IMG/VR virus record: IMGVR_UViG_3300009695_000004
Span: 1 to 64,000 of that record
DNA: 64,000 bases
Source: a virus
Reading direction: 5' to 3' (one strand)
Part shown: in pieces, positions 1,174-58,937 of the stretch
How positions within the stretch are numbered: position 1 is the first letter of the stretch
Layout of the letters: each line of letters opens with the position of its first letter
Notes under the pieces: generated by a model
Told to the model about the DNA's origin: nothing
The model's database searches: none
What the model saw: only the letters and a program-made list of their open reading frames with translations
Made by a program: the position numbers and the translations under genes

Positions 1174-1186
1174 TGGAGGTCTTATT

Positions 1187-2140
1187 ATGAGCAATTTAGA
1201 ACCTATTAAAACCAAACAACCCGTCATCGTTGGTATAGACAATGGATTCTACGGAACTAAGATATATTGTAAAGGTCAAACTATTTATCTACGCAGCCGT
1301 TATGAGCAATCAAATGATACTGTAAATAAGCGAAATACCTATCATTTAGAGCTGAATGGAAAAGACTATATAGTTGGTGAGGGTGCTGGTATAAGTAGCT
1401 TAGATGCAGATAAAACATCAAATGAACTGTATAAAATTATTACTTATGCCGGATTATCAATGCTTTCTAATTACTTAGGTGAATACTTCTATCTCGTTGG
1501 ATCATATCCTTTAAATATCTATAATCAGAATAAAGAACAATTTGCTAATTACTTAAAAGGTGAAGGATTCTTTCAAACTAAACTAGATGGAGAAGATAAA
1601 ACTTTTACTATAATGGATGCTATGACTTTTCCACAAGGAATATCTCATGCTTACAATAATCTAAAACTATTTGATAAGCAAGTTAGAGGAGTATTGGACT
1701 TTGGAGGGCTTACAATTAATTGTGTTATTCTTGATGATCTTAATATTATTCCTGGAACTCCTTTTACCGAAAACTTAGGAAGTATAATTTTATATAATGA
1801 TATTAAGAAAAACCTAGATAAACGATTCAATCAAAATATTCAGCCTTATGAAGTCCCTACTATTATAAAGTCTGGCTTAAAGATTAATGGTAGATTAGAG
1901 CAAGAATCTATATCAATTATTAAATCTACAATTACAGAACATATCTTAAAAATTAAGAAAGCAATGAAGGCTAATAATTGGAATGTAGATTCCTTAGAAT
2001 TATTTATAACTGGCGGAAGCTCCTTAGATTTCCATGATGAATTATTATCAATATTCCCACAAGCAATATTCTCTACCGATCCTGTTAACGATGGTGCAAA
2101 AGGATTGCATAGAATAGGTGAGTTAATGTATAATAATTAA
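1187..2140 (+). CDS. parM: actin-like plasmid segregation ATPase (ParM/StbA family)
   Basis: Actin-fold motifs VGIDNGFYGTKI (phosphate 1), LDFGGLTINCVI (phosphate 2) and FITGGSS (adenosine). The ATG at 1187 follows GGAGG at 1175-1179. The track start at 1163 (TTG) is less likely. Confidence 0.75.
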   Translation: MSNLEPIKTKQPVIVGIDNGFYGTKIYCKGQTIYLRSRYEQSNDTVNKRNTYHLELNGKDYIVGEGAGISSLDADKTSNELYKIITYAGLSMLSNYLGEYFYLVGSYPLNIYNQNKEQFANYLKGEGFFQTKLDGEDKTFTIMDAMTFPQGISHAYNNLKLFDKQVRGVLDFGGLTINCVILDDLNIIPGTPFTENLGSIILYNDIKKNLDKRFNQNIQPYEVPTIIKSGLKINGRLEQESISIIKSTITEHILKIKKAMKANNWNVDSLELFITGGSSLDFHDELLSIFPQAIFSTDPVNDGAKGLHRIGELMYNN

Positions 2141-3073: not shown

Positions 3074-3879
3074 TATATAATAGGATTCATACAGGCTTCT
3101 CTAAAAGTACATAGATGCTTACAAAAGAATCCGGTATAAGGATTATATCCCATAGGCCACTTTTCAATATTATCTTTATCTGTTATAGAGATTTCAATAA
3201 ATGTATCCATTATATAGTTTTCTAAATCTTCTTTTGCAATTTTATCATACTTTATTTCTATCAATCCCTCTTCATAAGCATCAAGTAAGTTAAGTTTATT
3301 TCTTTCAACTACTGTACCTTTTCTCTTTGCATACTTCAGCATATTAAAATATATCTTAATAGGAATATCTGGATATTGTTTTTCAAGTGCGTATGCATAT
3401 AATACTAATTGTCTTTGTTTGTGCAACATATCTTTAGCACTATACTTACTACTTGTCTTTAAATCGATAATATGAAGTTCTCCATTTAATAAATAAGATA
3501 AATCAATATATCCTCTAACTGTTACTCCCTTTATATCTACTTCAAAATATTGTTCTATCTTTATATTATCTCCTGTCGTTGGTGTAAAGTTTTCAAAGAA
3601 GTGAGTAATACATTCTGTGTAATTACTTTTTACTTTATCGCTTATCCATATAAATCCTAAGATATCAGCAAGTTCTATTGAATCATTAAATTTTTCTAAT
3701 GCACCCATATTTGTTTCTTTACCTTCAATAATACCTTGAGTTAATTCATGACATACAGTTCCTAAATAAGAGTAGATATTATCTCCCCCTCTATTTTTCA
3801 GAACATATGTATTATAGTAACTTCTTTTACAATTATGAAAACTTTCTAGTCTGCTAAAAGAGTATTTTTCCTCACTCAT
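3073..3879 (-). CDS. PD-(D/E)XK exonuclease, Cas4/RecB-like with C-terminal Cys cluster
   Basis: Motifs GTVCHE, GYIDLSY..IIDLKTS and QLVLYAYAL. One N-terminal Cys (C17) plus C-terminal CKHLCTFREAC fits a Cas4/AddB-type Fe-S arrangement. Confidence 0.65.
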   Translation of the reverse strand: MSEEKYSFSRLESFHNCKRSYYNTYVLKNRGGDNIYSYLGTVCHELTQGIIEGKETNMGALEKFNDSIELADILGFIWISDKVKSNYTECITHFFENFTPTTGDNIKIEQYFEVDIKGVTVRGYIDLSYLLNGELHIIDLKTSSKYSAKDMLHKQRQLVLYAYALEKQYPDIPIKIYFNMLKYAKRKGTVVERNKLNLLDAYEEGLIEIKYDKIAKEDLENYIMDTFIEISITDKDNIEKWPMGYNPYTGFFCKHLCTFREACMNPII

Positions 3880-6800: not shown

Positions 6801-7162
6801 CCTTCCTCGTTTTTCGCAATTAAGACTATATGACAATTAGTTCTATCCTTTTCAAATCTATCCTTAACCCAATATGCTTCAGTGGAGTGTCTGTATTTTA
6901 ACCCATTCTCTTCTGCTACTTTATAAGTCAAGAATACATTTCCTTGGCTGCCATGCTCACCCCCAAACAGGCACTTTCCGGAATACTCCTGAGTTTTCTT
7001 TGCATAATTCTCAATAGATTCTGCTGAATCAGGACTAAAAACATTCGAGTAATCTGTATGTTTATGATAGTTTTCACAGAGTAATTCTTCCAAATACTCT
7101 TCAGCACTGTATGGAAATTTAAAAGTAAGGGTAGGAATTATCTTTTTTATTAAATCTAGCAC
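3872..7162 (-). CDS. dnaE: DNA polymerase III alpha subunit (DnaE-type, PHP domain)
   Basis: PHP-domain motifs HKHTDYSN and GGEHG. Core motifs RGSSASFIVNKLLGFTTIDR, ERFLTKERVLSGQMPDIDWNIS and FNAPHALSMG. GTG start with AAGGAGG 7 nt upstream. Confidence 0.9.
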   Translation of the reverse strand: MLDLIKKIIPTLTFKFPYSAEEYLEELLCENYHKHTDYSNVFSPDSAESIENYAKKTQEYSGKCLFGGEHGSQGNVFLTYKVAEENGLKYRHSTEAYWVKDRFEKDRTNCHIVLIAKNEEGREDINFALSLANEEGYYYKARIDLDLLLKIPKENIIVSSACVAGWKYEDAEEIWLKIHKHFGNNFFLEVQNHDTPPQKELNKRISEIAKKNNIQLICGLDSHFSKQENSIKRDQIMKYKGVTYAEEEGWYLDFPDGKEIFKRFKEQGVLNNTEILMAMMNTNVFINECEETTFDRSFKIPCVYPNTTYEERVVIFKKIINERYKKEKLKSSEKVKGIIYEVEQIVDSGVVDYFLTNDKIVHNAVDNYGGILTTTSRGSSASFIVNKLLGFTTIDRFNSEIPIYPERFLTKERVLSGQMPDIDWNISSAEPFAKATRELIGEHGCYPLVSIEKLKKKAAWQLYAGANDVLPETANEISKFITKYDEKMKYADDEDKEFILIEDFIPEEYMSTYMQSLEYQGITINAKAHPCGYLIFDGDIRRKIGIIRTTSETTGKFVLCANIDGAYLDEFGYVKNDFLIVDSVHLTYELFKSIGKEVPSFDELREMIDGDKATWDIYAKGITCCVNQVEKESTTKKVKQYKPINLAQSSAFIAGIRPGFKSLLGNFLAREPYSTGEPVIDDLLEDTFHLMLYQENLMKILAFLGVPMADAYGVIKAISKKKLKGEKLEKLENTLKTNWLKQIGNLDNFEKVWQVFSDSARYSFNAPHALSMGGDSAYEAWFKAHHTAKFYEVAINHYQAKNKKDKIDALVKEAMIHFGYRLGDYEFKKDNRKVNVDEASKVIYPNLSSIKGFGEGVASTLYEMGLKDYKDFIIFLDDLKGGKINRTVVTQLIKLNYFKKFGGINYLLEVLKWYDTLRDAKEIFKEKALGLGLTLEFLLQYGNETAKKITKLRVEDLLRDIIKDIKDTPLSLYETIKNQKEILGIITHIDSSYSDKIFYVSELEVLKSITNITLYKIKDGKSENLKMWTTKFNKNEFELGDFLYLEKVDSKPQQTFTGEINPETGKRIYRDIEGSVEYWLNKFRVITYEFKEEIYE

Positions 7163-8175
7163 TCTTTTACCTCCTTAATATAATCATTTACTAATCTTAA
7201 AAACATGTCTTTACCCATATCCGAAGGAGAGTTTTTACTTCCTTTTTCTAATATTTCATTATTTTCATCATAGATATATCCTACTTTTATATTTCTGTGT
7301 CTCAGAAATTGTTGTGTTAATTTTACATTTTTAATACTAATTTCTTCTGGAAGTCCTTCATCTAAGCAATATATGATCTTCTTAGGATTAAGAGATATAA
7401 GTCTTTTTATTTGTCCAGATGATATTTCATTTCTGCCTAGAGAGACACATGTATTTATATAAACCGAATCAAGCTGCAAACAATGCTTTTCCGACTCTCC
7501 TATGTATAAGGCATCACAGTCTACTAAGTCTTTGTAGTTAGTAGAATACCCATATAGTGCGTTTAACTTAGGAAAAGGAATTACAGGAAGCCACCTTGGA
7601 ATACCTTCTTCTTCACCTATGTATCTACCCATAATCCCGATTAGTTCTCCAACATAATTTCTCCAAGGGATTGTTATTCTTTGAGTTAATGAATCCATTC
7701 CTATCTGAAATTTCTTCTGTGTGTCAAAACTTATTCCATCTTTTAGAAATCTCATATTGAATTTATTTAAAAAAGGAACAAGAATATCTTCGTTCAAAAC
7801 ATTACATTGGACTTCCTTATGATTATTTTTCTTTATATTCTTATAAACTCCTCCAAATACACTGTTTGTATTTTTCTTACTGAATGTAAAAGAATCTATT
7901 CCTAATTCACTCTTTATAATATTCAAAATATCAATTAGTTCTAGCTGCCTTTTCTTCATAAGGAATGAAAATAGATCACCATTTGTTCCATTCTTGAAGT
8001 CTTTACAGGAAATATTATCATCAAGTTTAATATTTATTGAAACTCCTTTTCCTTTGTCTGAGTTGCCACAAGAAATACTTGTTCTATGTTTTACTATTTT
8101 ATAAAATCCTAGAGTTTCTAATATGTTTTCTATATGTTCTGGATTACTTAATAAAAGCTCCTTTATTTCTTTCAT
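7156..8175 (-). CDS. Toprim-domain DNA primase-like protein
   Basis: Lies between the helicase and the polymerase. Toprim-like IGESEKHCLQL and YCLDEG acidic motifs. The N-terminal Zn-finger is not clear. Confidence 0.5.
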   Translation of the reverse strand: MKEIKELLLSNPEHIENILETLGFYKIVKHRTSISCGNSDKGKGVSINIKLDDNISCKDFKNGTNGDLFSFLMKKRQLELIDILNIIKSELGIDSFTFSKKNTNSVFGGVYKNIKKNNHKEVQCNVLNEDILVPFLNKFNMRFLKDGISFDTQKKFQIGMDSLTQRITIPWRNYVGELIGIMGRYIGEEEGIPRWLPVIPFPKLNALYGYSTNYKDLVDCDALYIGESEKHCLQLDSVYINTCVSLGRNEISSGQIKRLISLNPKKIIYCLDEGLPEEISIKNVKLTQQFLRHRNIKVGYIYDENNEILEKGSKNSPSDMGKDMFLRLVNDYIKEVKEC

Positions 8176-9204: not shown

Positions 9205-10767
9205 CTATACACCTATTCTAATTCTTTTTGGGTAACAGTACGCTACCTCAGAAAAAGTCCCAAGACTACCTATGAATTTATAGAGCATAGCAATTCCAGT
9301 ATCGTTTGAACTTGATCCATTTCTTGTCTTTTCAAAGAAAACAGTCCTGTATGTAGCATCTGTCTCTGGAGTGTAATCTTCTTTCACCCATTTATTTCCA
9401 ATAAGTTTTCTTTGAAATGGATGACAATAAAACTTTTTATTTCCAGAATCGAGTTCCTCAAGAAATGTTGGACGAATTAGAGTCAGGCTCTCTAAAATTT
9501 CTTTCACTTGTTTACTTTGAGAAATGACTGATGCATTTAAAAACAATACATTGTTTAATCCTTCTGCTAATTGAATGTTTGCTAATCCTATAAGATTATA
9601 TTTTTTACATAGAGTATCTAAAGTCCTTGAATCCTTTATAAGTCTAAGGTGATTATTATCTCCTGCTCCTATATCCAACTCACTTTTAAAAGTATCATAA
9701 GCTAGTACATCAAATCCTTCTGTGAGAGCATATTTCCTAACTTTTTTCTTTACTATAGAGATGTCAGCATCACAAATTTGTACGAACTTAAAACTTTTTG
9801 AAAACTTTTCATTCCATACTTTCTGTGCTTTTTTAATCATCTCTCTATCTTCAAGTGTCAATTCTCCTTTATTTTTTAACTTTTTCTTACTTACTTTATA
9901 GTATTTGAAGTATTTCACAAGAATAAGCATCAAGAATTGCATTTTAAATACACTAGACCTTTGTTCGTTTGAGATAATTATTATTTTTCTTCCTCTAAAT
10001 TGAAGTCCCATTAATATCGTGGTCATCATAGTTGTCTTACCCGAACTTGAAAATCCACCTAACATATTTAGTGATTGGGGCATGAGTCCTCCGATTTCAT
10101 TACTCATATAAGAAAACCCCTTCATATTCTCTCCATCTTCTGATTCTCCAAGTATATCAAAAGGAACTCCCGACTCCAATCCTTCTTGTAATCCCTCTAA
10201 ATATTCATCTGTTATCTCTAAATCTCCTTCTTCCAAGACCTTCGTACTATTACCTGTAGAAAACTCATTTATCCTTTGCATATACCACTCAACAACAGAT
10301 TCACTGTCCATTTTTCTAAACAATTTTAAAGGAATTATCTCTTTGCCATCACAATTAATTGGTTTTAATAAATTCATTCCTAAATCATAAAGCTTTAAGA
10401 TTACATTTTCTCTATCCAATACATCAAGATATGCTTCTGCGTTTTTATCATTCATAATATCAATAACGTCTTGAATTGATTGCCATCCGCCTCTTTGTTC
10501 ATATCCATTAGTTACAACTTCTCCACATTCTGAGAAAATTGTAACATCATCTATTACATTAAAATTCTTTTTACGAATATTATTAGCTATTTCAAAGTAG
10601 AATTTGCCATCTTGAGTAATAAAATCAGTTGATTTTAAATTAACTTCATCAAGAGTTAAAATATCTTTAAAAATTATTCCGACAATATTACCCTCGTGCA
10701 TTGCTCTGTTTTCTAATAATTCTTTTGGATATCTTTCTGTGACACCTGTGATAAATATATCATCCAA
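9205..10767 (-). CDS. dnaB: replicative DNA helicase (DnaB-like)
   Basis: Walker A GGFSSSGKTTMMT with a RecA-like C-terminal domain. TTG start with GAGGAGGG upstream. Confidence 0.8.
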   Translation of the reverse strand: MDDIFITGVTERYPKELLENRAMHEGNIVGIIFKDILTLDEVNLKSTDFITQDGKFYFEIANNIRKKNFNVIDDVTIFSECGEVVTNGYEQRGGWQSIQDVIDIMNDKNAEAYLDVLDRENVILKLYDLGMNLLKPINCDGKEIIPLKLFRKMDSESVVEWYMQRINEFSTGNSTKVLEEGDLEITDEYLEGLQEGLESGVPFDILGESEDGENMKGFSYMSNEIGGLMPQSLNMLGGFSSSGKTTMMTTILMGLQFRGRKIIIISNEQRSSVFKMQFLMLILVKYFKYYKVSKKKLKNKGELTLEDREMIKKAQKVWNEKFSKSFKFVQICDADISIVKKKVRKYALTEGFDVLAYDTFKSELDIGAGDNNHLRLIKDSRTLDTLCKKYNLIGLANIQLAEGLNNVLFLNASVISQSKQVKEILESLTLIRPTFLEELDSGNKKFYCHPFQRKLIGNKWVKEDYTPETDATYRTVFFEKTRNGSSSNDTGIAMLYKFIGSLGTFSEVAYCYPKRIRIGV

Positions 10768-11294: not shown

Positions 11295-12446
11295 TTATTG
11301 AAGATATTCTAAAACCTTAACAAACATTTCTGTTGGCTTATCGGTGTCTAATTTCTCTGCATTGTAGTCTGCAAATATCTTCTTTATGCCGCTAATTTTA
11401 GTTTTATCTCCGGCTTTTGCTAAATCCTTCATAATTGCTGCTATTTTATTCTTAAGTTCTTCATTCTTAGCCTTGTCTACAACCAGTTCTTCCTTTACAT
11501 CATCCTCAATAAGAATATCTTCTATAGTTTCTTCAATAGGTGCAACTTCTTTCTTAGATACAGGAGTAACTTCCTTTGTATCAGACACTGGCTTTGCATA
11601 GAAATCTACTTGTTTCTGTATTGCGTCCTCAATTGCCTTAATGAAACTATCTGTGGTGAAATCTACTTTTGCATCGATGAATTTAAGATGAGACTTATTA
11701 TCTATTGCATGTTCTTCATCTCTGAAAGCAAGAACTCTCTTTTCACTTTGGATTCTGCCGACCTTCTTATCTTTCTTTGTAAAAGCATCTTTAACAGTTT
11801 GAATATCATTCATTTCTCTTTCGACATAAGCACACCCTACGATAGCAACCCTATCTTTTATCGCATTGTAATACTTTGAATCTAAGTCGGAGGTAGTTAC
11901 TTCATATTCAATATCTGTTTGAGGATCTTTGATATTCTTTTTCTTTGTATGTCCTATAAAAAAAGGACAAATTCCAGCATTTCTTAAAGGGAATATAGTT
12001 CTTATAACTAAATCAACAACCAAGTTTTCTCCTGCCTGGAATCCTCCATATGCTGCCTTAATACTTGCTACTTTCTTTGTTGGATTAGCGTTATTATATT
12101 CAGAAACCATATAGTCTTCTGCTATCCTAAATATTTCATTGGTTGTATCCATCGCAACCATTCTTAATTCTGGATAATCTTCTTTCTTATACTTAACCAA
12201 TAGTTTAATAATTTCAGAAAAGTCCTTCCAATCTTTTGCTACTTCATTAAGTACGTTTCCCATATGTTCCGGTTTTGGCTCTTCCCCCACAGTTAGGAGA
12301 AGAACACCGTCCTCTCCATATAGTTTTTGACCAATTTCTACTGCGGTTGTAGTCTTGCCAATGCCAGCAATTCCATTAAGCATATAACTATAGTCTGCAA
12401 AGCCTGTTGCTACTGTTGTTTTTGAACCAATTTTTCTTCTCTCCAT
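11295..12446 (-). CDS. AAA_24/Sak4-like RecA-family ATPase
   Basis: Walker A GIAGIGKTTT and Walker B-like VAMDTTNE. Start moved to ATG 12446 (AAGAAGGA RBS) because the promoter motif overlaps the track start at 12467. Confidence 0.65.
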   Translation of the reverse strand: MERRKIGSKTTVATGFADYSYMLNGIAGIGKTTTAVEIGQKLYGEDGVLLLTVGEEPKPEHMGNVLNEVAKDWKDFSEIIKLLVKYKKEDYPELRMVAMDTTNEIFRIAEDYMVSEYNNANPTKKVASIKAAYGGFQAGENLVVDLVIRTIFPLRNAGICPFFIGHTKKKNIKDPQTDIEYEVTTSDLDSKYYNAIKDRVAIVGCAYVEREMNDIQTVKDAFTKKDKKVGRIQSEKRVLAFRDEEHAIDNKSHLKFIDAKVDFTTDSFIKAIEDAIQKQVDFYAKPVSDTKEVTPVSKKEVAPIEETIEDILIEDDVKEELVVDKAKNEELKNKIAAIMKDLAKAGDKTKISGIKKIFADYNAEKLDTDKPTEMFVKVLEYLQ

Positions 12447-26862: not shown

Positions 26863-26908
26863 AATAATATCAATCTCCTTCGTTTATTATTTTATAATCT
26901 AAATATAC

Positions 26909-26930
26909 TATATTATATTACAATTGTCAA
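26909..26930 (-). promoter_or_regulatory. sigma-A-like promoter with phage motif
   Basis: Sense strand TTGACAATTGTAATATAATATA followed by TATATT at 17-nt spacing from TTGACA. Confidence 0.5.
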
Positions 26931-26949
26931 TATATTCTAAAAATATTAT

Positions 26950-27087
26950 TTATATTTTATGTCTAATCTCAAAGTCAAGTATATCTGTAACTTCATCTAT
27001 ATCGTCAATTTCTTTGTCACCATTCAAGGTTTCGCTTATCCACACTATCATTTCTACATTTGCAAATACTTTTGCTTTATATTTCAT
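26950..27087 (-). CDS. hypothetical protein (45 aa), not in ORF track
   Basis: ATG at 27087 after AAAGGAG. Reads MKYKAKVFANVEMIVWISETLNGDKEIDDIDEVTDILDFEIRHKI. Confidence 0.45.
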   Translation of the reverse strand: MKYKAKVFANVEMIVWISETLNGDKEIDDIDEVTDILDFEIRHKI

Positions 27088-42395: not shown

Positions 42396-42785
42396 TTTCT
42401 TCATTCCTTTCACTGGTTTATTTCTTAGCTGATTATTATATTCTTATTTTAGAATTTAAAGAAGGGTAATTTTAGTAATGTCTCAGTTACCCTTCTTATT
42501 ATATTCTATTTGTTCACACCTTTTTATATCTATTATTTCCTTTACTGCTTATGCCAAACGGAATACTATTGAAGTGGTATTTGTTTTTAGTGCTCCAACC
42601 TACCTAATTTATAGTTGATATAAAAAGCTTTATTCAGTTTTCAAATAACTACTTTTAGCTATAAATCGTAGAGCCCATAAACTACGATATCACAGAATGT
42701 AGACACACATTACAGATAAGTGGAACTTTAAGGAGTTCAACCCATAAGGCACGATTTATTTACTAACCTTATGTATTTATTATAA
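42396..42785 (-). ncRNA. long structured 5' leader or stand-alone RNA ending in a strong hairpin
   Basis: Lies downstream of two tandem leftward promoter motifs. No ORF is present. Hairpins are ATCGTAG/CTACGAT, GAACT/AGTTC, and an 11-bp stem at 42459-42497. Confidence 0.35.
42459..42497. terminator. 11-bp perfect-stem hairpin (terminator/attenuator candidate)
   Basis: AAGAAGGGTAA (42459-42469) pairs with TTACCCTTCTT (42487-42497), 17-nt loop. The flanks are only moderately U-rich. Confidence 0.5.
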
Positions 42786-42804
42786 CATATTATATTAGGT
42801 TTGT
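42786..42804 (-). promoter_or_regulatory. phage promoter-like motif (leftward arm entry)
   Basis: Sense strand ACAAACCTAATATAATATG. Confidence 0.5.
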
Positions 42805-42815
42805 ATATAGTTTTA

Positions 42816-42834
42816 TATAATATATTTGATTTAT
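42816..42834 (-). promoter_or_regulatory. phage promoter-like motif (leftward arm entry, second copy)
   Basis: Sense strand ATAAATCAAATATATTATA. Confidence 0.45.
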
Positions 42835-42844
42835 AATTGTTAAC

Positions 42845-43310
42845 AATTTATGAACGTTATCAGGTAATTGATCCAATGTCGGAATTATTAGTTATGCATT
42901 AGAATTTCATTGAATGTATAAGTTATTGTATATCAATGTATAATTGTATGTGTTTATGCATAGAATTTTATAGAATGGTATGTTTAAAGGGTTTATGATA
43001 TCGATTGTGTTAAATATACATTAGTATACATTGATGAATGTATATAGCTGATTGTTTATGATATAGTTGAATTGTAGAATTTTATTAGATACGATAAATT
43101 GATATGCATTATTAGTTTATTGTATGGATATTATTGGGTATTGATTGTTAATATATATTAGTGATATAGTAGGAATTAAATCAGGGATATGAGGATATAA
43201 TCATATGACTTGTATATACATGTATAGAGTTGTATAGTGTTTCATATAGTACATTTTACTTTTGACACTAAAAAGTTTATAAGTGAATGATCATTCATTT
43301 TAGATATACA
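42845..43310. other. C-depleted (top strand) repeat-rich tract
   Basis: I counted 10 C in 42901-43200. Degenerate direct repeats are present, e.g. TTATGCATTAGAATTTCATTGAATG (42893) versus TTATGCATAGAATTTTATAGAATGG (42953). No ORFs. Confidence 0.7.
43284..43297. repeat. 14-bp perfect palindrome TGAATGATCATTCA
   Basis: Read directly from the sequence. Confidence 0.7.
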
Positions 43311-43320
43311 ATATTACTTT

Positions 43321-43352
43321 ACTAACTAAATAGTTTACTAACTAAATAGTTT
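43321..43352. repeat. perfect 16-bp tandem direct repeat ACTAACTAAATAGTTT x2
   Basis: Read directly: copies at 43321-43336 and 43337-43352. Confidence 0.85.
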
Positions 43353-43403
43353 GATTGTCAAAGTAATAATGTCATATTGATTATATCGTTATTGCCAGTA
43401 AAG

Positions 43404-43570
43404 TTATCCACAGGCTAATAAGTTATCCACATTTAATCCACAAGTATTTGTAGTTTGTTCATTAATTGTTCATTAGTTATCCACAGATATTGTATGGTTA
43501 TCCACAGTTTTATGTAAGTTATAAACAAGTTATCCACAGATTATATGACTTATCCACAGAGTTATCCACA
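43404..43570 (+). promoter_or_regulatory. DnaA-box cluster (7 perfect TTATCCACA plus 1 TAATCCACA, all same orientation)
   Basis: Perfect boxes at 43404-12, 43423-31, 43477-85, 43498-506, 43530-38, 43550-58 and 43562-70. The variant is at 43434-42. Confidence 0.85.
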
Positions 43571-43959
43571 GGTAAAATACTCATAAATGAAAAAATGCAT
43601 CTTGTATAATTGAACAAAGTAAACATTTTACTATCATATAGTTATTGAAACTACATTACGTAAATATCAATGTCATAATTACCCTGTCCACATATTCACC
43701 TACTAAACATAGATATTTTACCCTAAACACTAGATTAAACATATATTTCATTGAATGTTTTTAGTGAATATGACACAAATATAGTCATATCAACGTACTA
43801 CAGGGTATTAAAACAAGCCTATTTTGCAGCAAACTAGTGAATTAGCCATATAAATTACAAGGATCATAGACCAGGGGCGTGTATTACGTTCAGCCAGTTC
43901 CGGGGTTTTTGAAATTTGGGCGTGCCTCACTAACGTCATTACCCTATCAAAAAATCACT

Positions 43960-45000
43960 TCCGTAACAATAATTTAAACATTATTTTCATAAATCCATCC
44001 TCCAATTTAAACATATTTTATAAATTCAAAACCTCAAATTCCTACAAAAATTCCTCAAATCCTAACCTTCCATCGCAAATAATACGAATCTAACAATCAA
44101 TTTCCTTCCTCTTTCTTCCAATATCTCACAAATTCATCTCAACAAAATTCAATTCCGTTATCCCCTATCGTAAACACTATCGTATTACCTTCAAAATCCC
44201 TTCCCAAATCTCATCAAAACTCACATAATATCACCTAATATATCCCATATCTCACTCAATCTCATACAATTCTACCTCATTCTCATCTGATCTCATAACG
44301 GTCAATATACTAAAACAATCCCAAACCCTATCACGGGGAGTACATTTACTTCAGAAATTATATCTTCCATATATACCCTACTACCTTCTAAAATTCACTA
44401 CACTAAATTCTCTATCTCACAGCAACAAAATCATATCCTTTTCATTAAGTTTCACAACCAATACTATCATACCTATTCGCAACTTCTAATCAACCTATAC
44501 TAAAATAAGCCACTTTATTAGTACAATTTCATCACACTGCTATTGGAGGGGCATACACTTACATCTCAACTACAATTCTCCATACCCTACCTATACCTTC
44601 CTAAAAAACATCACATCTTCTATCCCCCCTACTCCAACTCAACAAAACAACACCAATTTCCTCTCAAATTTTCACTAACCCAATTCTACCTATTCCATAG
44701 AACTATTTAATCCTGCTCTAAATAACCTACTTTTTTAGGACAATTCTATATCCTGAACCTGTCTCTACTAATATACTACATTCGGCAGCAATAATAAATC
44801 TACATCCTAATATCCTCTGGACTATATCTAAATAACATAAAATTCTTCCTAACAAAATAACTCCATTCTCATACCCTACACTAAATCAATCAAAATCACC
44901 TCTAAAAACGATTCTACCTCCTAGCCATACAAATATACTCCTAACCCTACTTTCGTTTAACCTTGCTCTAAATATAGCTACGTTTATAAGGATATTCTTT
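43960..45000. other. G-depleted (top strand) tract of degenerate 200-250-bp repeats
   Basis: I counted roughly 45 G in about 1040 nt, with abundant C. Several 60-nt lines have no G at all. Recurrent units include CTCTAAATAACCTACTTTTTTAGGACAATTC (44716) versus CTCTAAATATAGCTACGTTTATAAGGATATTC (44966), and ATACCCTAC at 44375, 44583 and 44870. No ORFs. Confidence 0.8.
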
Positions 45001-45022
45001 ACTAGAAATATATTTTACTATT

Positions 45023-45041
45023 ACAATCAGAATATAATATA
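45023..45041 (+). promoter_or_regulatory. phage promoter-like motif (rightward arm entry)
   Basis: ACAATCAGAATATAATATA. Confidence 0.5.
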
Positions 45042-45057
45042 TATTTATGAATACCTA

Positions 45058-45086
45058 TTGACAATACGAATATAATATAATATACT
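45058..45086 (+). promoter_or_regulatory. sigma-A consensus promoter with phage motif in spacer
   Basis: TTGACA, the 17-nt spacer ATACGAATATAATATAA, then TATACT. A roughly 190-nt leader runs to the rep ATG. Confidence 0.6.
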
Positions 45087-45282
45087 TATGAGTGATATAG
45101 AAAATACATTACAGAACATAGCAGAGAAAGGCGAACGCCGTCTGAGTGTTGCAAGAATAACATTACTATACATAAGAAAGGAGGAAACTAATAAGAAAAC
45201 AAAAACATTACGCTCACGACTTCAGGCGTGAAAAGAGTTACTTCAGTAACGATACTATTAGAACAACAGAAAGGAGGATCAT

Positions 45283-45726
45283 ATGAAGAAAGAACCAATA
45301 GAACATAAACCTACTCTAAAGGAAATACTACTTGACGATAGTAATGGATTCATACCACTACCAAGACAATTAATTACCATCCTAGGATTCAATGCAACAG
45401 GCTTACTAGTAGAACTATATGATAGATATGATTACTATAGTTCACAGCAATCACTAAATACCTATGGAGAATTTTTCTATACAGTCAATGATATTGAAAT
45501 CAATACAGGACTATCGAGGAGAGAACAAACCACATCTATCAAAATACTAAAGGAATACAATTTCATAGAAAGAATTATATCACGCGATATGCCACCAAAA
45601 AGATATTTCCTCATGAATAGTAATATCACACACCTCCTAAAGAATATCTATAAGAAAGCAGAAGAGAAGAAATCTAACATCATCGAAAGAAACAAAACTG
45701 AAATAGAACGAATGTTAGGAACATAA
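45283..45726 (+). CDS. winged-helix replication initiator-like protein (RepA_N/DnaD-like)
   Basis: IPLPRQLITILGFNATGLLVELYDRYDYYS...FYTVNDIEINTGLSRREQTTSIKILKEYNFIERI resembles RepA_N initiators of Firmicutes plasmids. GAAAGGAGG RBS. Iterons and palindromes lie immediately downstream. Confidence 0.45.
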   Translation: MKKEPIEHKPTLKEILLDDSNGFIPLPRQLITILGFNATGLLVELYDRYDYYSSQQSLNTYGEFFYTVNDIEINTGLSRREQTTSIKILKEYNFIERIISRDMPPKRYFLMNSNITHLLKNIYKKAEEKKSNIIERNKTEIERMLGT

Positions 45727-45780
45727 TTTCCCATATATTTCCCAGAAAAGCACATGTCTTCGGAATATAGTTTTTGATTA

Positions 45781-45828
45781 TAGTTATTGATATATAGTTA
45801 TTAGTAATAGTTATTAGTATTAGTTATT
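45781..45828 (+). repeat. four TAGTTATT iterons at 13-14 bp spacing
   Basis: Copies at 45781, 45795, 45808 and 45821. Confidence 0.75.
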
Positions 45829-45834
45829 AATAGC

Positions 45835-45937
45835 AGTGCGTTTCGCACTAATTAATTGGTACGTTTCGTGCGTTATTTACGTGCGTTTCGCACTAATCAT
45901 ACGTGCATATCGCACTAATCTTACGTACGTTTCGTAC
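45835..45937. repeat. five phased 13-15-bp palindromes GTRCGTTTCGYAC (operator/iteron/centromere-like)
   Basis: AGTGCGTTTCGCACT at 45835-49, GTACGTTTCGTGC at 45859-72, GTGCGTTTCGCAC at 45881-93, GTGCATATCGCAC at 45903-15, GTACGTTTCGTAC at 45925-37. Centres are 21-24 bp apart. Confidence 0.8.
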
Positions 45938-46091
45938 CAATTGGACTCCCTAGAGGGCTAAGAGGATATAGGTTGAAGAAATAAGGCTATGACTAAGAGC
46001 TTGTAAATGAAATATTACATAAAAATTAAGAAGACCTCTATAAAGATTATTAGAATTATAGACAAATTATATAACAATGAATAAGTATTAA

Positions 46092-46409
46092 TTATATTCA
46101 TGTTGTAATTGCAGAGCTACTAATGCATATGGTGAGAAATCTGCTATAGCATATCTACTTAACAGATTCTTAAATCCACTTGATAAAGGATTCTTTGAAG
46201 ATAAAGGTATTTCTATTGATGAAGATTTATGGGCTTTGAGTGAACTCATACAATTCATCTGGAGAAGTAGGATCAGAAATGATAAAAGTATTAATATTTA
46301 TATCCCAAATAGTCGTATGAGAATGCTGTTTAAAAATTACCTTGAAAATAACCTTGGGAAATCAGAAGTCCCAAATCAATTTTTAGATGGCTCAACCATG
46401 CGTGTTTGA
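46092..46409 (+). pseudogene. start-less C-terminal gene fragment (helicase-like C-terminus?)
   Basis: An open frame from the TAA at 46089 to the TGA at 46407-09 has no usable start. It reads ...AYGEKSAIAYLLNRFLNPLDKGFFEDKGISIDEDLWALSELIQFIWRSRIRNDKSINIYIPNSRMRMLFKNYLENN... The composition is protein-like. The family assignment is from memory only. Confidence 0.45.
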
Positions 46410-46587
46410 AGGGTGTACCCCTTAAAAGAAAATTTTATATAAAAAGAGAGTAAAAGAGAGGTTAAATTGACTATAATTTATTACTATTTTCTATAGATTA
46501 TTGCAGAGAAAGGAGAACATAATTGAAGGGCATAATTATCTTCTCTACGACTTACGTCGAACTTGTATAAATATATTTAACTTCTTA

Positions 46588-46616
46588 TTGACAATTCAAA
46601 AGTAATATGATATAGT
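46588..46616 (+). promoter_or_regulatory. sigma-A consensus promoter with phage motif in spacer
   Basis: TTGACA, the 17-nt spacer ATTCAAAAGTAATATGA, then TATAGT. Confidence 0.6.
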
Positions 46617-46644
46617 TATAGTAATAGGTTTATTTTACTTCTAC

Positions 46645-46663
46645 ACAATTCAAATATAATATA
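46645..46663 (+). promoter_or_regulatory. phage promoter-like motif (perfect)
   Basis: ACAATTCAAATATAATATA. Confidence 0.55.
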
Positions 46664-46744
46664 TGAAAAGAAGTAATCAGAAGCTATCATGAATCTGTCC
46701 GAAGTATTTGGGGAAAGTGTGTTCGTATAAAGGAGGTAGTATTA

Positions 46745-46921
46745 ATGAAATGTCCATCATGTAATAAAGAAATGAAGCAAATAGCAGTAGATACTTTTTC
46801 TTTTGAAAATTCTATGGTAATGGCAGAAGAATGTTGGTGTGAATGTGGAGTTGTATATCAGTTCTCATGCGGAGCAGAAAGATATATGAAAGATGGAGAA
46901 GAAATTAATTTCAACTTATGA
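46745..46921 (+). CDS. hypothetical Zn-ribbon protein (58 aa), not in ORF track
   Basis: ATG after AAAGGAGGTAGTATTA. Reads MKCPSCNKEMKQIAVDTFSFENSMVMAEECWCECGVVYQFSCGAERYMKDGEEINFNL. Confidence 0.55.
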   Translation: MKCPSCNKEMKQIAVDTFSFENSMVMAEECWCECGVVYQFSCGAERYMKDGEEINFNL

Positions 46922-46938
46922 AAGGAGGAAATATCAAT

Positions 46939-47100
46939 TTGAATATAATAATGTTTCTCACAGGTATAACAATAGGAATGTTTTTAATTCCAATAATTAA
47001 AGAAGTTAAGTATCACATTGATTTTAAATTTAGCATTATAAAAGATCCAGTAGAATTTATCAAAGATGTACTAGATAGAACATTTACTGGAGGTTATTAA
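46939..47100 (+). CDS. small membrane protein (53 aa)
   Basis: ORF track frame. The TTG at 46939 lies 9 nt after GGAGGA. TM segment IIMFLTGITIGMFLIPII. The track start is ATG 46918. Confidence 0.5.
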   Translation: MNIIMFLTGITIGMFLIPIIKEVKYHIDFKFSIIKDPVEFIKDVLDRTFTGGY

Positions 47101-47123
47101 TAAATAATATTAAGGAGGAAATT

Positions 47124-47255
47124 ATGAACCAAAACGAACTAATAGAGAAAATTATTTACTGGATATATGACGAAAGAGTTGAATTAACCGATCCAGAGAA
47201 AACCATCAGACAAATTAAAACTAAATTGAAGGAGGACAAGCATGTTAAATTATAA
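47124..47255 (+). CDS. hypothetical protein (43 aa), not in ORF track
   Basis: ATG after AAGGAGGAAATT. Reads MNQNELIEKIIYWIYDERVELTDPEKTIRQIKTKLKEDKHVKL. Confidence 0.5.
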   Translation: MNQNELIEKIIYWIYDERVELTDPEKTIRQIKTKLKEDKHVKL

Positions 47256-47745
47256 AACAGAATTTGTCGTTAAATTTGAAAAAGATTACAATGGTAAAAC
47301 ATATAACGTTGAGGATAATTATTTAAGTTGCAGAAATAAATCTAAAATATGGAGATATGACTCATCCACCCTAGTATTCGAATCATCCAGAAGACCTAAA
47401 CTTAAGAAAATTGACAAGCTCACAGGTAAAGTAATATTCGATCACACATACTTATTTCTAGAAGTAATCGATACAGATGCAGAACGTTTAATCTACTTTA
47501 AAGAAGAGAATTTTGATTTAGTAAAAGACCTATTTAAAGTTCGTGTTAGACGTAAAATGTCAGAGGAACAGAAAGTTGCTGCCAGAAAGAGATTACAAGA
47601 ATATAGAAATAATATAGGAATTACTGCTGATATTACCGAGGAAGATTTAGAAGAAGAAATTAATAATATCGAAGAACTTAATGATAACAATGATGAGGAA
47701 ATGGATATTGAGGGTGAGATAGAAACGGAAGAGTTTGAAGATTAA
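47242..47745 (+). CDS. hypothetical protein with acidic C-terminal tail (167 aa)
   Basis: ORF track; GAAGGAGG RBS. Confidence 0.6.
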   Translation: MLNYKTEFVVKFEKDYNGKTYNVEDNYLSCRNKSKIWRYDSSTLVFESSRRPKLKKIDKLTGKVIFDHTYLFLEVIDTDAERLIYFKEENFDLVKDLFKVRVRRKMSEEQKVAARKRLQEYRNNIGITADITEEDLEEEINNIEELNDNNDEEMDIEGEIETEEFED

Positions 47746-49164: not shown

Positions 49165-51786
49165 TTGAATAAGCAAATTCATATATATAGTGTAGATACT
49201 AGTGCGTTTTATAACGAAGCCGAAATGATAATCCATAGAAGATTAAGCAAATTGTATTCCTATAAAAAAGAGTTGATTCGCAAACGAGATAAATTTAAAG
49301 TTGTATTTGTTAATGAAAAATGGAAAATAAATATAAAAAAGCGTATCAGACAGTCTAGTTTGGCAATTAAAAATACAAAGCAAGGTTTATATGTAAAATT
49401 TGGAGAAAATATTGGTATAAGAAATCTCAATGAAAAATCTTTAAATAAATATAATATAATTTCAATGTTCGACTCCAGTTTAACTAGATTAATGAAAATA
49501 CCAATAAATACTATTACAGAAGATATTATAGTTGTTCAAACATATTTCTTTGAAGTTATAAAAGATATTATTATAAATGGGTTTACCTCTAAAGGAGAAA
49601 GATATGTTTGCTTCACCGCTAGTGCAGGACAAATAAGAACAAAGAAAACTGTATTCATAAAAGAAAAAGTTCTGAAAGAACATATAAATGCTATTACCTG
49701 TGGACTGAGCCTAGAAGAGATAAACAGGCATGGAGGAGTTAATGTAAATAAATACTTAGCATACTTAGCCTTATGCAATTCAGCTACAGATGAATGGGAA
49801 GGATTTGATATAACTAAAACAATAGTTGTAGAAGATATGGATACCGAAGTTCCTGGAATTGTAGATTTTATTGATGATAAGACTTATGAAATTAAAAGAA
49901 CTCCTATGGAGATACCTATTTCACATACAGATGGGTGTGGGGTTATGTTGCCTAGCAAATATAAGAAGTCAAGAATGGCTAGACTACCCTGGATTAAAGG
50001 ACTTTTAGTCCCTATGCCCTTTGATAAGTTTATTCGTGAAAAATCTAAGGAAACAGGAGTATATTGTGGGATAATACAAGATATTTATGGAAAAGAACAT
50101 GATATTCTAAAAGAAAAAATTGAAGTTATATTTACCAGAAGTCAATTTAAGATGGCGAAGTATTATGATTCGTGGGAACAATATAAAGAGAACTTTATTA
50201 AATTTGGTTGTCAATCATGTAAATGTAATGAGGAAGAAGATATTTTCAGTGAGGCTAAATTGAATTACCAGATGCTACAAACCTTAATAGATATGGAGGT
50301 TCATGAATTAAAGCCTGTTATTAAAAAAACTAAATACAATATCATAAATATTGGCAAAGATAGAAAAACAATGTTGAAGGTGTTGGGTGTTGTGGCATCT
50401 AATATAAATAAGAACTATATTCAACAAGCATTAGAGATATATCCTGAATTATTGAATGATACCTATAGTAAAGAAATATTAAAACAAGTTAAAAAGAGTT
50501 TAGTTAAAGAAGGAAGATCTGGTAAATTAGATTTAGGCAAAAACGGAATATATACTTTTATCATTCCAGATTTATATGCTTTCTGTGAATATCTATTTCT
50601 TGGAATTAAAAATCCGGAAGGAATACTTAAGAGTACAGATGTTTATTGCAGTCTTTATAAAGATTCTCCTAAGTTGGACTGTCTAAGATCTCCTCATTTA
50701 TTTTTAGAGCACGCAGTTAGAAACAATGTTATAGACAAAGAGAAAGATAGATGGTTTATTACAAGTGGACTATATACAAGCTGTCACGATATGATCAGTA
50801 AAGTGTTAATGTTTGACAATGATGGTGATAAATCCCTATTATGTGCAGACACTACTATAATTACAGTTGCTGAAAGGAATATGAAAGATATTGTTCCCTT
50901 GTATTATAATATGGCTAAAGCTCCTGCGAAAGAAATAAACAACGAGGTTATATATGAAGGATTAAAGGCAGCATATACGGGAGGTAACATAGGTTTATAT
51001 AGTAATAATATAACAAAGATATGGAATAGCGAGAATATTAACCTTGAAGCAGTAAAATTATTATGTATGGAAAATAACTTTACAATTGATTATGCTAAGA
51101 CATTGTACAAGCCTAAAAGACCATCTGATAAACAGGAGTTAATTACTAATTATACCAAATCTAAAGTTCCAAGATTCTTCATTTACGCAAAAGATAAAGA
51201 AAAGGATAAAGTTGAAAAGGCCAATAATAGTACAGTAAATAAATTACTAAAAATGATTCCAAACCCTAATATTAATTTTAAGAATATGAAGTTGGGTGAA
51301 TTTGATTTTAAAATGTTAATGAAGAATAATGATGTTGAATTAGATGAAGTTATTATTAAAAAATATACGAAATTGGATTTAAAGAAACATTTTATGTTGA
51401 GTTCACATGATGAAGAATCTAATAATATGTGTTATTTATATCAGGATATTAAAAATCAAATATTAGAAGTTAATAGTGATATTAATTATGTAACAGATGT
51501 GTTGGTTAGGTATTTATATGAAGAAAAAAAATCTAGTTTCAAAACTACTTTATGGGAATGTTTTGGAGATATTATGGTTAAAAATTTAAAAAGGAATATT
51601 CCTAATGGTTTTGAAGATGGGTATATGTTGTGTGAAATATGTGGGGATAGAATTGAAGATAGTTGCAGCACTAAAAAATATTGTGAAAAATGTGCCAAAG
51701 AACAATGGAAAGAGCAAGTTAAACTAAATATGAGAGAATATCGTAAGAGAATCGTTATAAAACGAACCGAGTCTGTTAACCCTTGA
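49165..51786 (+). CDS. YonO-like single-subunit two-barrel RNA polymerase (RdRP/beta-prime-like DxDGD motif)
   Basis: MFDNDGDKS (D-N-D-G-D at 50815-50829) matches the universal Mg-binding DxDGD/NADFDGD motif. FTASAGQIRTKKTVF (49612-) resembles the SQLR-type motif of the RdRP/YonO family. At 873 aa it is similar in size to SPbeta YonO. C-terminal Zn ribbon CEICGD...CEKC. Confidence 0.6.
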   Translation: MNKQIHIYSVDTSAFYNEAEMIIHRRLSKLYSYKKELIRKRDKFKVVFVNEKWKINIKKRIRQSSLAIKNTKQGLYVKFGENIGIRNLNEKSLNKYNIISMFDSSLTRLMKIPINTITEDIIVVQTYFFEVIKDIIINGFTSKGERYVCFTASAGQIRTKKTVFIKEKVLKEHINAITCGLSLEEINRHGGVNVNKYLAYLALCNSATDEWEGFDITKTIVVEDMDTEVPGIVDFIDDKTYEIKRTPMEIPISHTDGCGVMLPSKYKKSRMARLPWIKGLLVPMPFDKFIREKSKETGVYCGIIQDIYGKEHDILKEKIEVIFTRSQFKMAKYYDSWEQYKENFIKFGCQSCKCNEEEDIFSEAKLNYQMLQTLIDMEVHELKPVIKKTKYNIINIGKDRKTMLKVLGVVASNINKNYIQQALEIYPELLNDTYSKEILKQVKKSLVKEGRSGKLDLGKNGIYTFIIPDLYAFCEYLFLGIKNPEGILKSTDVYCSLYKDSPKLDCLRSPHLFLEHAVRNNVIDKEKDRWFITSGLYTSCHDMISKVLMFDNDGDKSLLCADTTIITVAERNMKDIVPLYYNMAKAPAKEINNEVIYEGLKAAYTGGNIGLYSNNITKIWNSENINLEAVKLLCMENNFTIDYAKTLYKPKRPSDKQELITNYTKSKVPRFFIYAKDKEKDKVEKANNSTVNKLLKMIPNPNINFKNMKLGEFDFKMLMKNNDVELDEVIIKKYTKLDLKKHFMLSSHDEESNNMCYLYQDIKNQILEVNSDINYVTDVLVRYLYEEKKSSFKTTLWECFGDIMVKNLKRNIPNGFEDGYMLCEICGDRIEDSCSTKKYCEKCAKEQWKEQVKLNMREYRKRIVIKRTESVNP

Positions 51787-57247: not shown

Positions 57248-58517
57248 AAAATTTAAGAGGTAGTTTAGGCATATATTTATATGTTTATCTACAGCCTTCC
57301 ATGATTGCAAGTGGAAGTTTATAATAGTGCGAAAACACTTTAAATATGGAGATAGCAGAAGCAGTCTCCTTCTGTACCTAGAGACAATAAATACATAGGT
57401 TAGTAGGCTTGGTTAGAGTCTCAGAACTAATCTGCTTCTATGGGTGTTAGTGTAACGATAGCACACCTTCAAAGGATACGTAGAACACGTTTGACTCGTG
57501 TACATCCTAATAATATTATTTTAAAAGAAGATTTTCTCATAGAGCGTGAGAAATTAAAAATAAAGAAAGCTCAATTATAAGATTTAGTTGTAGAACGCAA
57601 CTAAGTAAAAATAAAGAAAGTTCAATAGAAGAATGTTTTATAGCAGACGTAAGGTCAAACAAAAGACTGTTGAGGATCGGAAATGTTCCCGACACGCTAT
57701 CTATATTGATAGTTAACAGGTATGTAGGAAGTGCAGCCCTACCAACAGTCTAATTCTATGTAAGCTATATACCTATTCGCACCTAGAAGCCTGTGCGAGG
57801 ACGATGATAAGGGGAAACATCTAAAACCCTATAGCAAAAAATCTATAATACTAGGCAATATAGGTTTAATCTTATTTATATTACAAGGTGTATCCAGCCT
57901 TCGAAAATGGAAACTTTAAATTCATGCCATACACCAAGGGGCTTTGTACCTTGGCTATTTAGTCCGATAAGGACAAAAGTTGCACGAGTAATGACGATAG
58001 TTAACAAAGTGTAATGAAGGTAATACAACAGTTCGGAGATTACCTTTGAGACGGGAACTCCTTAAAAACGCCTAGGGAATCGCAGCGCAAATAGGAAAGG
58101 TCTAAAGTGTTTTGCGATAAACATACACTTATAGATTTATCTCACTTCTTTAAATAACAGTTCTCTCAAGCCTCTGTTTATAATGCTATTATAATTAAGC
58201 GTAACAATGAGAGCCAGAAATTTATATTTTGATAGCGACATAAATCATGTGGTTTATGTGGTTTAGGAGGAGGATTATTTTCTAATATTAACTTAAAGTT
58301 AGTGTATCTGTTGAGATACTAGCCTTTGTTACTTTATGCGATAAATTAAAGTAAATAGTATGTCGCTACTCGATATGCGACTAATAAAAGGTCGAGTTCA
58401 AATGTTGTAATCTATGGAGAGTCCCTACCATATAGTGGGAAACTTTAAACTCAAGTTCTTTAAATTTAGTTATAAATTCTTTATATATGAAGACTTTCGT
58501 ACTATTGTTAAAGAACT

Positions 58518-58862: not shown

Positions 58863-58937
58863 GCTGATATGACTCAACGGTAGAGTAGCACACTTGTAAT
58901 GTGCAAGTTGTAGGTTCAAATCCTATTGTCAGCTCCA
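58863..58937 (+). tRNA. trnT: tRNA-Thr (anticodon UGU) with encoded CCA
   Basis: Folded manually. Acceptor GCTGATA/TGTCAGC (one G-U), D stem ACTC/GAGT, anticodon stem GCACA/TGTGC, loop CTTGTAA, T stem GTAGG/CCTAT, T loop TTCAAAT, discriminator T, then CCA. Confidence 0.9.

Follow-up and report, generated by a model that had tools for sequence, protein, structure and literature searches.

In Bacillus subtilis, eight sites are bound by DnaA in vivo, both halves of oriC included, and these contain four to eight boxes each, of which zero to three have the sequence TTATCCACA; the clusters bind DnaA stably and regulate neighbouring promoters or the availability of DnaA (PMC2533591). The criterion for stable binding in vivo is at least four close high-affinity boxes (Ishikawa et al. 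2007; PMC2533591). T5-like phages carry eight boxes in their injection-stop region (iss), a large, repeat-rich untranslated region; about half of these are non-consensus, they form pairs 3 bp apart inside inverted repeats that lie in the terminal repeat, and the role in injection is proposed, not shown (bioRxiv 10.1101/866236). Here we describe a DnaA-box array in a 64,000-nucleotide stretch of viral DNA (IMG/VR record IMGVR_UViG_3300009695_000004, positions 1 to 64,000; hereafter the window). The array belongs to this known class of phage-borne or extra-oriC DnaA-box clusters, but is unusually clean and dense, and it has a culturable analogue. The link between phages and DnaA has so far been studied mainly in lambda, P1 and T5, and we found no account linking Firmicute phages to DnaA arrays in the full-text literature searched. 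The array would very probably capture host DnaA, and we tentatively read it as an accessory DnaA-loading platform that could gate early transcription and the neighbouring replicon.

The array consists of eight co-oriented sites over 167 bp on the plus strand. Seven perfect TTATCCACA boxes start at 43404, 43423, 43477, 43498, 43530, 43550 and 43562, and the variant TAATCCACA at 43434 completes the set; a preliminary description of the window had listed these eight, and each was found where it had been placed. The array and the elements within or just beside it are as follows.

43404..43570, plus strand: DnaA-box array, seven TTATCCACA and one TAATCCACA, defined from sequence positions and shuffles
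43455..43475, plus strand: two tandem copies of TTGTTCATTAA (period 11, 1.9 copies, 100% match)
43519..43527, plus strand: decayed ninth box TTATAAACA, two mismatches, in register, read directly from the sequence
43540..43568, minus strand: promoter-like site inside the array, 10/12 match
43318..43352, plus strand: exact 16-nt direct repeat TTTACTAACTAAATAG, 2.2 copies, just upstream of the first box

The window has a single further perfect box, at 27036 on the plus strand. Dinucleotide shuffling (100 shuffles) gave an expectation of 0.82 perfect boxes per window, with none of the 100 shuffles reaching eight, and the Poisson chance of seven boxes within 167 bp is about 1e-20 (an estimate scaled from the shuffle rate). 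Six of the eight boxes are flanked by G at both -1 and +1, giving the extended motif (a/g)GTTATCCACAG. With the decayed box included, which lies between box 43498, 21 nt away, and box 43530, 11 nt away, the start-to-start spacings are 19, 11, 43, 21, 21, 11, 20 and 12 nt; the mean for the eight boxes is about 22 nt, and the gaps between boxes are 3 bp in one pair, 2 bp in another and 10–34 nt in the others. The spacings are phased at a 10.5-bp period (Rayleigh resultant 0.91, p about 6e-4) and thus one helical face holds all the boxes. Furthermore, half-matches TTGTTCATT at 43455 and 43466, which agree with the box at 5/9 positions, run in exact 11-bp steps up to box 43477, and these 9-mers are possible low-affinity DnaA sites. 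Called repeat families and tandem repeats reach only a few bases past each box, with matches of about 70–81%, so the array is unlike a recent tandem duplication, and repeat analysis of the array revealed no inverted-repeat frame around the boxes. A 5.6-kb assembly of the same phage (JGI contig Ga0123336_10015074) starts at window position 43581, ten bases past the last box; the repeat array may break short-read assemblies. The lone box at 27036, in a left-arm intergenic gap, has the window's least stable 60-mer (26900-26959) about 80 nt away.

Binding of host DnaA is very likely because the number of boxes, their perfection, their flanks and their phasing are all far beyond chance, and because the array has more perfect boxes than any site that DnaA occupies in vivo in B. 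subtilis. It has well over four clustered boxes with at most one mismatch, seven of the eight are TTATCCACA, the strongest box, and it lies between genes. The earlier impression that its density matches or exceeds that of an oriC agrees with the published counts, with seven TTATCCACA here compared to a maximum of three per B. subtilis site (PMC2533591). A tblastn search of the window with DnaA domain IV sequences detected no homolog, and the neighbouring ORFs (open reading frames) gave no Pfam or PHROG hits that would indicate linkage to dnaA or dnaN. Consensus, flanks, phasing and the absence of a domain IV homolog in the window all favour the first half of an earlier proposal, that the phage recruits host DnaA; the second half, that DnaA thereby fires the phage's own origin, fares poorly given the weak unwinding flank, the separate iteron module, the relatives without an array and the arrays of virulent 949-group phages that are described below.

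The array itself is probably not where the DNA unwinds. The window averages -1.17 kcal per step (sd 0.07); the flanks of the array, at -1.04 and -1.10, are less stable by only about 1 SD, and the right flank (-1.10) is outside the 25 least stable 60-mers, so that there is no marked AT-rich unwinding element next to the last box. Nor is there AT enrichment beside the last box across 52 co-oriented arrays from viral contigs. In contrast, a 13-nt repeat 2.2 kb to the right reaches -0.95 kcal per step, ranking seventh in the window. We therefore did not class the array as an oriC-type origin, for which both an unwinding element and dnaA/dnaN linkage are missing.

That 13-nt repeat is part of a compact module in the rightward arm.

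45283..45726, plus strand: gene for a 147-aa winged-helix protein of DnaD-like or replication-initiator N-terminal type (PHROG, AlphaFold2 and structure search)
45765..45832, no strand assigned: AT-rich 13-nt repeat, ATAGTTATTGAT-like, about five copies, directly after the stop codon of the 147-aa gene
45833..45943, no strand assigned: five 22-bp iterons, GTGCGTTTCGCACTAATCATAC-like, each with an internal palindrome (family D1; period 22, 4.8 copies)

The 147-aa protein is encoded by the first sizeable rightward gene and matches PHROG families 186, 428 and 9773 (E 9e-6 to 1e-3), which comprise DnaD-like helicase loaders and replication initiators. Its AlphaFold2 model (predicted local distance difference test score 81.6) has a winged-helix core and a long C-terminal helix, and structure search scored highest (template-modelling score 0.48–0.51) for a Rep-DNA complex and 'initiator' N-terminal domains (5kbj, 4pql, 4pt7). 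These structural matches are weak (E at least 0.04), many unrelated winged-helix regulators score alike, a profile search of the family against PDB sequences returned nothing meaningful, and a scan of viral contigs with the protein recovered no relative. The protein is the candidate iteron-binding initiator and is DnaD/RepA_N-like. The 13-nt repeat, which is conserved in two related contigs, L148 and L154, coincides in part with the 60-mer at 45772-45831, the seventh least stable of the window, and is a candidate DNA-unwinding element. In L148 (123.8 kb), the initiator gene and AT-rich repeat are 70% identical to the window at the nucleotide level, whereas most tblastx matches over the remainder are below 40% identity and the RNA-polymerase region is at 21–29%; four to five 22-bp iterons of a different sequence occupy the same place. 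In L154 the initiator protein is 72% identical, and yet another 22-bp iteron sequence stands there. Three lineages thus have three different iteron sequences that co-vary with the initiator protein. An initiator that moves as a unit with its own matching iterons and a neighbouring unwinding element is a classical replicon signature. Just right of the iterons, a start-less frame of 101 codons (46095-46409, plus strand) contains SELIQFIWRSRIRNDK; it is conserved at the nucleotide level in L154 and L161 but matches nothing in Pfam, and could be either the remnant of a gene or a gene whose start is unusual.

This module has a cognate initiator beside its iterons and AT-rich repeats adjoining them, as iteron origins do, but not DnaA boxes inside or flanking the minimal origin: no box with at most one mismatch lies in 43571-47309, and the last box of the array ends at 43570, 2.2 kb away. 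For this reason the array was not classed as the DnaA-box part of a P1-type iteron origin. Judged from these sequence features, the phage's own origin is more likely to be the initiator-iteron module (45283-45943) than the array. For annotation, the lesson is that an origin need not coincide with the densest cluster of DnaA boxes at a strand switch; in this phage the better candidate is a module transferred as a unit among distant genomes.

Most relatives of this phage lack the array. Among 23 viral contigs that encode relatives of its RNA polymerase, scanned upstream for as much as 10 kb or to the end of the contig, 21 have no cluster of three or more boxes, and small clusters occur only in L136, with four boxes, and L142, with three. 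No homologous array was found among these 23 viral and 11 genomic polymerase relatives, and L148, whose arms are only about 170 bp apart, is devoid of DnaA boxes. Because L148 and most polymerase relatives lack it, the array appears to be accessory, specific to its lineage and separable from the replicon. The four boxes of L136 (a 136-kb Brevibacillus gelatini contig, also designated L173) abut a gene start. In Clostridium phage c-st, a cluster at 11485-11650 comprises five co-oriented boxes, among them an abutting perfect pair. The boxes stand on either side of a TTGACA-17-TATAGT promoter and extend into the start of CST015; they are unannotated in the c-st record, and the cluster looks like a DnaA-controlled phage promoter.

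The closest analogue among cultured phages is found in Lactococcus. A BLAST search with the array at matched stringency hit 26 cultured-phage records, of which 22 are Lactococcus phages (the 949 group and PMBT69). The 949-group phages are virulent siphophages of 115–133 kb with a distantly related YonF-type terminase. In phiL47 (boxes at 6732-7064), the cluster lies in a 2.2-kb untranslated region at a divergent strand switch, and five further 949-group phages have the same layout, with both flanking genes seen to diverge in three. The boxes form a head-to-head pair plus a third box, a conserved 240-bp spacer and three to four co-oriented AAGTTATCCACAG at 21 bp, six or seven in all in each of the six phages examined (phiL47 is without the last one), and are followed by about eight copies of a TTTGA(C/G)TTTCTAATTTTTGAA-like repeat. 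The stretch left of the boxes in phiL47 has more G than C. The phiL47 genome paper mentions neither the boxes nor the downstream repeat array (PMC3888941). The preliminary description had tied the array to a plasmid-like lifestyle, but strictly virulent phages carrying a like array in the same hub show that such a lifestyle is not required.

Furthermore, more than 120 IMG/VR contigs have at least three co-oriented perfect boxes, and 52 have at least four that are co-oriented and more than 120 nt from the locus end, with spacings mostly of 11, 12, 21, 22 and 33 nt. The 552 clustered boxes of these viral contigs share the flank pattern A-G-[box]-G-G seen in the window, and terminases and VapE-like proteins identify the array-bearing contigs as real phages. 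In the usual layout, which the window shares, the array stands between a leftward and a rightward gene, and its boxes point to the gene that runs in their own direction; 19/29 upstream and 18/28 downstream neighbours fit this layout. At 15/120 loci, compared to fewer than one expected, one to four tandem sigma-54-type elements (TGGCAC-N5-TTGC[AT]) lie 10–150 nt past the array, with only the sigma-54-critical positions conserved; examples are L026 10194-10420, L117 3560-3800 and L110 (reverse strand), and also L068, L081, L031 and L054. We looked for sigma-54-type promoters beside the window's array and found none. PHROG searches with the genes flanking 20 viral-contig arrays returned families of unknown function, one small terminase and one endolysin, a result that favours no model. 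Gokushovirus-like single-stranded DNA microviruses (KT264787, MK496754, PQ006258 and others) also have similar arrays, in or near the replication-initiator gene or in the intergenic region.

In the window the array lies in a 2.6-kb ORF-free gap (about 42620-45280) that extends from the last leftward gene to the first rightward genes, and the cluster had rightly been placed at the switch between the divergent arms. The main parts of this hub around the array are listed here.

42760..43400, no strand assigned: left flank, AT-rich; also the promoter region of the leftward arm
43571..43939, no strand assigned: right flank; first 80 nt 79% AT compared to 71% in the window
43940..45030, no strand assigned: G-depleted untranslated spacer; plus strand 4.4% G (48 G) and 28% C
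45058..45086, plus strand: strong sigma-A-type early promoter TTGACA-17-TATACT, which drives the rightward arm

The flanks have extreme and mutually opposite strand biases, each reversed relative to the adjacent coding arm, in a window of 29% G+C. To the left, the plus strand of 42800-43300 is G/T-rich with 2–10% C, contains TGTATA eight times and TATACA four times in sub-clusters spaced by about 10 bp, and the third least stable 60-mer of the window (42777-42836) lies in this flank. To the right, a G+C island at 43850-43940 precedes the spacer, in which all four of the window's longest G-free runs (148, 111, 106 and 89 nt) are found. Six of the nine window copies of [AT]TACCCT[AG] lie at 43679-44871, in and just upstream of the spacer. 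Any RNA transcribed outward from the array would be G-poor and C-rich, and inward G-rich and C-poor. Folding 43790-43960 on both strands gave no significant RNA-structure signal, Rfam at a permissive threshold returned nothing across the hub, and self-comparison of the spacer detected no tandem repeat structure. L154 likewise terminates in G-poor DNA upstream of its own early promoter, and a 19-mer common to the spacers of both, used to scan viral and metagenome contigs, recovered only L161, the same contig as L155. The early-promoter region has a second copy at 46588-46616 (repeat families D3/D4). The promoter-like site embedded in the array has its -35 TGGATA within box 43562, a 17-nt spacer that contains box 43550, a perfect -10 TATAAT (43545-43540), and box 43530 at the start point.

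The hub position of the 949 arrays, the c-st promoter, the gene start in L136, the viral-contig layout and the sigma-54 elements all argue for a local, promoter-linked role, and the consistent orientation and position suggest that this role is directional. In the mechanism that we consider, ATP-DnaA would bind the eight to nine co-oriented, same-face boxes cooperatively to form one oriented filament, a step strongly inferred from the sequence. The filament would cover the embedded promoter-like site and may control transcription into the flanks, which are non-coding and skewed. Either this transcription or a contact with the DnaD-like initiator could couple firing of the iteron origin and early expression to the DnaA-ATP level of the host. 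Unwinding would occur outside the array, and sequestration of DnaA on amplified phage DNA would be a by-product. A function of this kind would have parallels in the DnaA boxes that aid iteron origins (P1, F, RK2) and in ori-lambda, whose transcriptional activation is stimulated by DnaA.

Several points weigh against this gating role. The embedded promoter has no statistical weight in such AT-rich DNA, with 31 sites of its kind compared to 33 expected from shuffles. The array is 1.5 kb from the early promoter and 2.2 kb from the iterons, beyond the distance of any known DnaA-assisted iteron origin, and promoter control usually needs fewer than eight consensus boxes. The four metagenome copies of the phage are 100% identical over 42–47 kb and so offer no variation by which to compare boxes with spacers; many of the viral-contig loci are mutually related, and their orientation and sigma-54 counts are thus not independent.

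A second origin is an unlikely account of the array. Here the array would be a DnaA-dependent oriV for theta replication in the plasmid state, with unwinding just right of the last box, on the side to which the boxes point, and the iteron module would serve lytic replication; R1 and the unwinding element of E. coli oriC are models for this, as is the two-origin design of P1 (oriR, oriL). The phage does look like a phage-plasmid, with a ParM-like partition protein and a tyrosine recombinase, and the only PLSDB records that resemble the array at matched stringency are two Buchnera plasmids, whose DnaA-box region is regarded as their origin. The array also lies at the strand switch near the GC-skew minimum, but the minimum is confounded with gene orientation. 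The basal unwinding (BUS) rule calls for three or more NAN DnaA-trios, separated from a box by a spacer of no more than 16 nt (PMC8287927), and the array passes it formally: boxes 43550 and 43562 at the cluster edge are split by GAG into a 3-bp tandem pair, and the last box is followed by a 6-nt spacer and exactly three trios (3'-TAT GAG TAT-5'). However, three is the minimum of the rule, and we estimate that three trios within 16 nt arise by chance about 40% of the time in AT-rich DNA, so they have no weight. The 80 nt beyond, at 79% AT compared to 71%, are no strong unwinding element, and no dnaA or dnaN is nearby. Furthermore, relatives share the replication genes without the array, the virulent 949 group has a like array, and the phage encodes its own initiator, helicase, primase and polymerase.

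We also think it improbable that the array is mainly a DnaA sink, like the B. subtilis clusters or datA, whose boxes on replicating phage DNA would take up DnaA, block new rounds of host initiation and perturb the DnaA regulon to the advantage of the phage. A datA-like sink was the other earlier proposal. The array exceeds the four-box criterion for stable binding (PMC2533591), and a sink would need no adjoining unwinding element. Its patchy accessory distribution among relatives is typical of host-takeover cargo, and such arrays occur in virulent phages and in many unrelated viral contigs. A sink, however, needs no fixed position, no co-orientation and no orientation relative to genes, yet all three are seen, and the c-st and L136 boxes are promoter-proximal; a purely passive sink is thus disfavoured by consistent positioning and orientation and by the closeness of promoters in the analogues. 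Deletion of the B. subtilis clusters has only mild effects, and datA acts by ATP hydrolysis that depends on integration host factor (IHF), not by plain titration; no IHF-type site was identified at the array.

It is very unlikely that DnaA does not use the boxes at all, either because they are iterons of a phage protein that equal the consensus by chance or because they are an inert remnant of a captured oriC. Iteron arrays are common in such hubs, this array is lineage-specific, and variant copies are absent, so that purifying selection is not visible. But seven exact 9-mer matches that also have the flanks of 552 clustered boxes are no coincidence, and boxes that are conserved while the spacers are not argue against a recent duplication or a decaying relic. 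The window has no DnaA-like DNA-binding domain and no dnaA or dnaN remnant, and analogous arrays are retained across the 949 group.

We give least credence, and very little of it, to a DNA-handling signal at which membrane-associated DnaA would hold incoming or resident DNA to pause its entry, anchor it or segregate it. T5-like phages have eight boxes in a similar region proposed as an injection stop (bioRxiv 10.1101/866236), the window's array too lies in a large repeat-rich untranslated region, and in a T7-like Shigella phage boxes occupy positions 90-149 at the genome end. However, the window's array has only one T5-like 3-bp pair, no inverted-repeat frame and no sign of genome ends, the T5 model is itself only proposed, and the termini of c-st, the nearest cultured relative with known ends, are away from its strand switch and box cluster. 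By the same c-st analogy we rejected the hub as the site of the virion termini, as those of c-st are not at its strand switch; the ends of metagenome contigs are arbitrary.

The phage that carries the array appears to be an SPbeta/c-st-like phage-plasmid of about 120 kb with a low-GC Gram-positive host. Neither the hub nor 25 kb of the left arm, the parts searched, has nucleotide matches to cultured phages or plasmids, and the window represents a new phage. The identical phage is present in four metagenome assemblies, in contigs of up to 122 kb, and relatives occur in Brevibacillus, Paenibacillus, Clostridium and other Bacillota. The genes located include the following.

1163-2140, plus strand: ParM-like partition protein
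3872-7162, minus strand: Pol III alpha
7156-8175, minus strand: primase
9205-10767, minus strand: DnaB-like helicase
49165-51786, plus strand: YonO-like single-subunit RNA polymerase, 873 aa (Pfam RdRP hit, DxDGD-type motif MFDNDGDK)

Helicase, primase, Pol III alpha and ParM-type partition protein had all been claimed before, and the genes are indeed there. The left arm (minus strand) further encodes an AAA_24 protein, an NAD-dependent ligase, an exonuclease, the tyrosine recombinase and an anti-repressor. Directly upstream of the ParM-like gene, CAATTAATA occurs four times within 1080-1167, and these repeats are likely a parC-like centromere site. The right arm (plus strand) encodes, with the RNA polymerase, a beta-CASP nuclease, ClpP, the small and large terminase subunits and the portal. 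Relatives of the RNA polymerase, at 43–72% identity, come from the 23 viral contigs and from genomes of Brevibacillus, Paenibacillus, Cohnella and Lachnospiraceae. With the plasmid prophage c-st the phage shares 33% identity in the large terminase, a protein with distant relatives among the YonF-type terminases of SPbeta-like, phiCD211-like and Lactococcus 949-group phages. A row of RNA elements lies upstream of the gene for the small terminase: two 6A RNA motifs in tandem, a skipping-rope RNA and a tRNA-Thr(TGT) (57529-57750 and 58863-58937; all Rfam matches above the gathering score).

It is conceivable, if rather doubtful, that phased, co-oriented rows of consensus DnaA boxes are an unrecognised, recurrent phage device that reads or hijacks the replication-initiation potential of the host. 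If this were true, the AAA+ initiator DnaA would be a switch for phage transcription or replication, and amplification of phage DNA would starve host initiation. Should host DnaA indeed be loaded by the array, this phage and the dairy-relevant, culturable 949 group would tie their early programme or replicon to the master initiator, or disarm it. Because short, sharply defined arrays exist in phages with genetic tools, the competing models are directly testable.

The window's array can be set against five described systems. Like the six B. subtilis DnaA-box clusters (for example gcp-ydiF, yqeG-sda and ywlC-ywlB) and E. coli datA, it is intergenic, has at least four close high-affinity boxes and lacks an adjoining unwinding element; unlike them, it is phage-borne, co-oriented and phased at 10.5 bp, with seven TTATCCACA compared to their maximum of three. 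It shares with the BUS of chromosomal oriC a row of co-oriented boxes, the last two 3 bp apart, that reads toward an AT-richer flank, but has only three trios, at chance level, a flank that differs from average stability by only about 1 SD, and neither dnaA nor dnaN. With the T5 iss, whose role lies outside replication, it has in common about eight boxes in a large repeat-rich untranslated phage region, although here they form a co-oriented phased row with one 3-bp pair, no inverted-repeat frame and no sign of a terminal repeat. P1 oriR, F oriS, pSC101 and RK2 oriV have one to five DnaA boxes within the origin, tens to a few hundred bp from the iterons. The phage resembles these plasmids as a low-copy element with partition genes, a winged-helix initiator, iterons, an AT-rich repeat and DnaA boxes, but its eight to nine boxes are 2.2 kb off, none lies in 45.6–46.1 kb, and its relatives keep the iteron module without boxes. 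Finally, the 949 group (Audreyjarvisvirus: 949, phiL47, WRP3, AM1-12, LW81, P1048) differs in its added head-to-head pair and third box 240 bp upstream, its other repeat families and its strictly lytic lifestyle, but is like the window in placing the boxes in an untranslated hub at a divergent strand switch.

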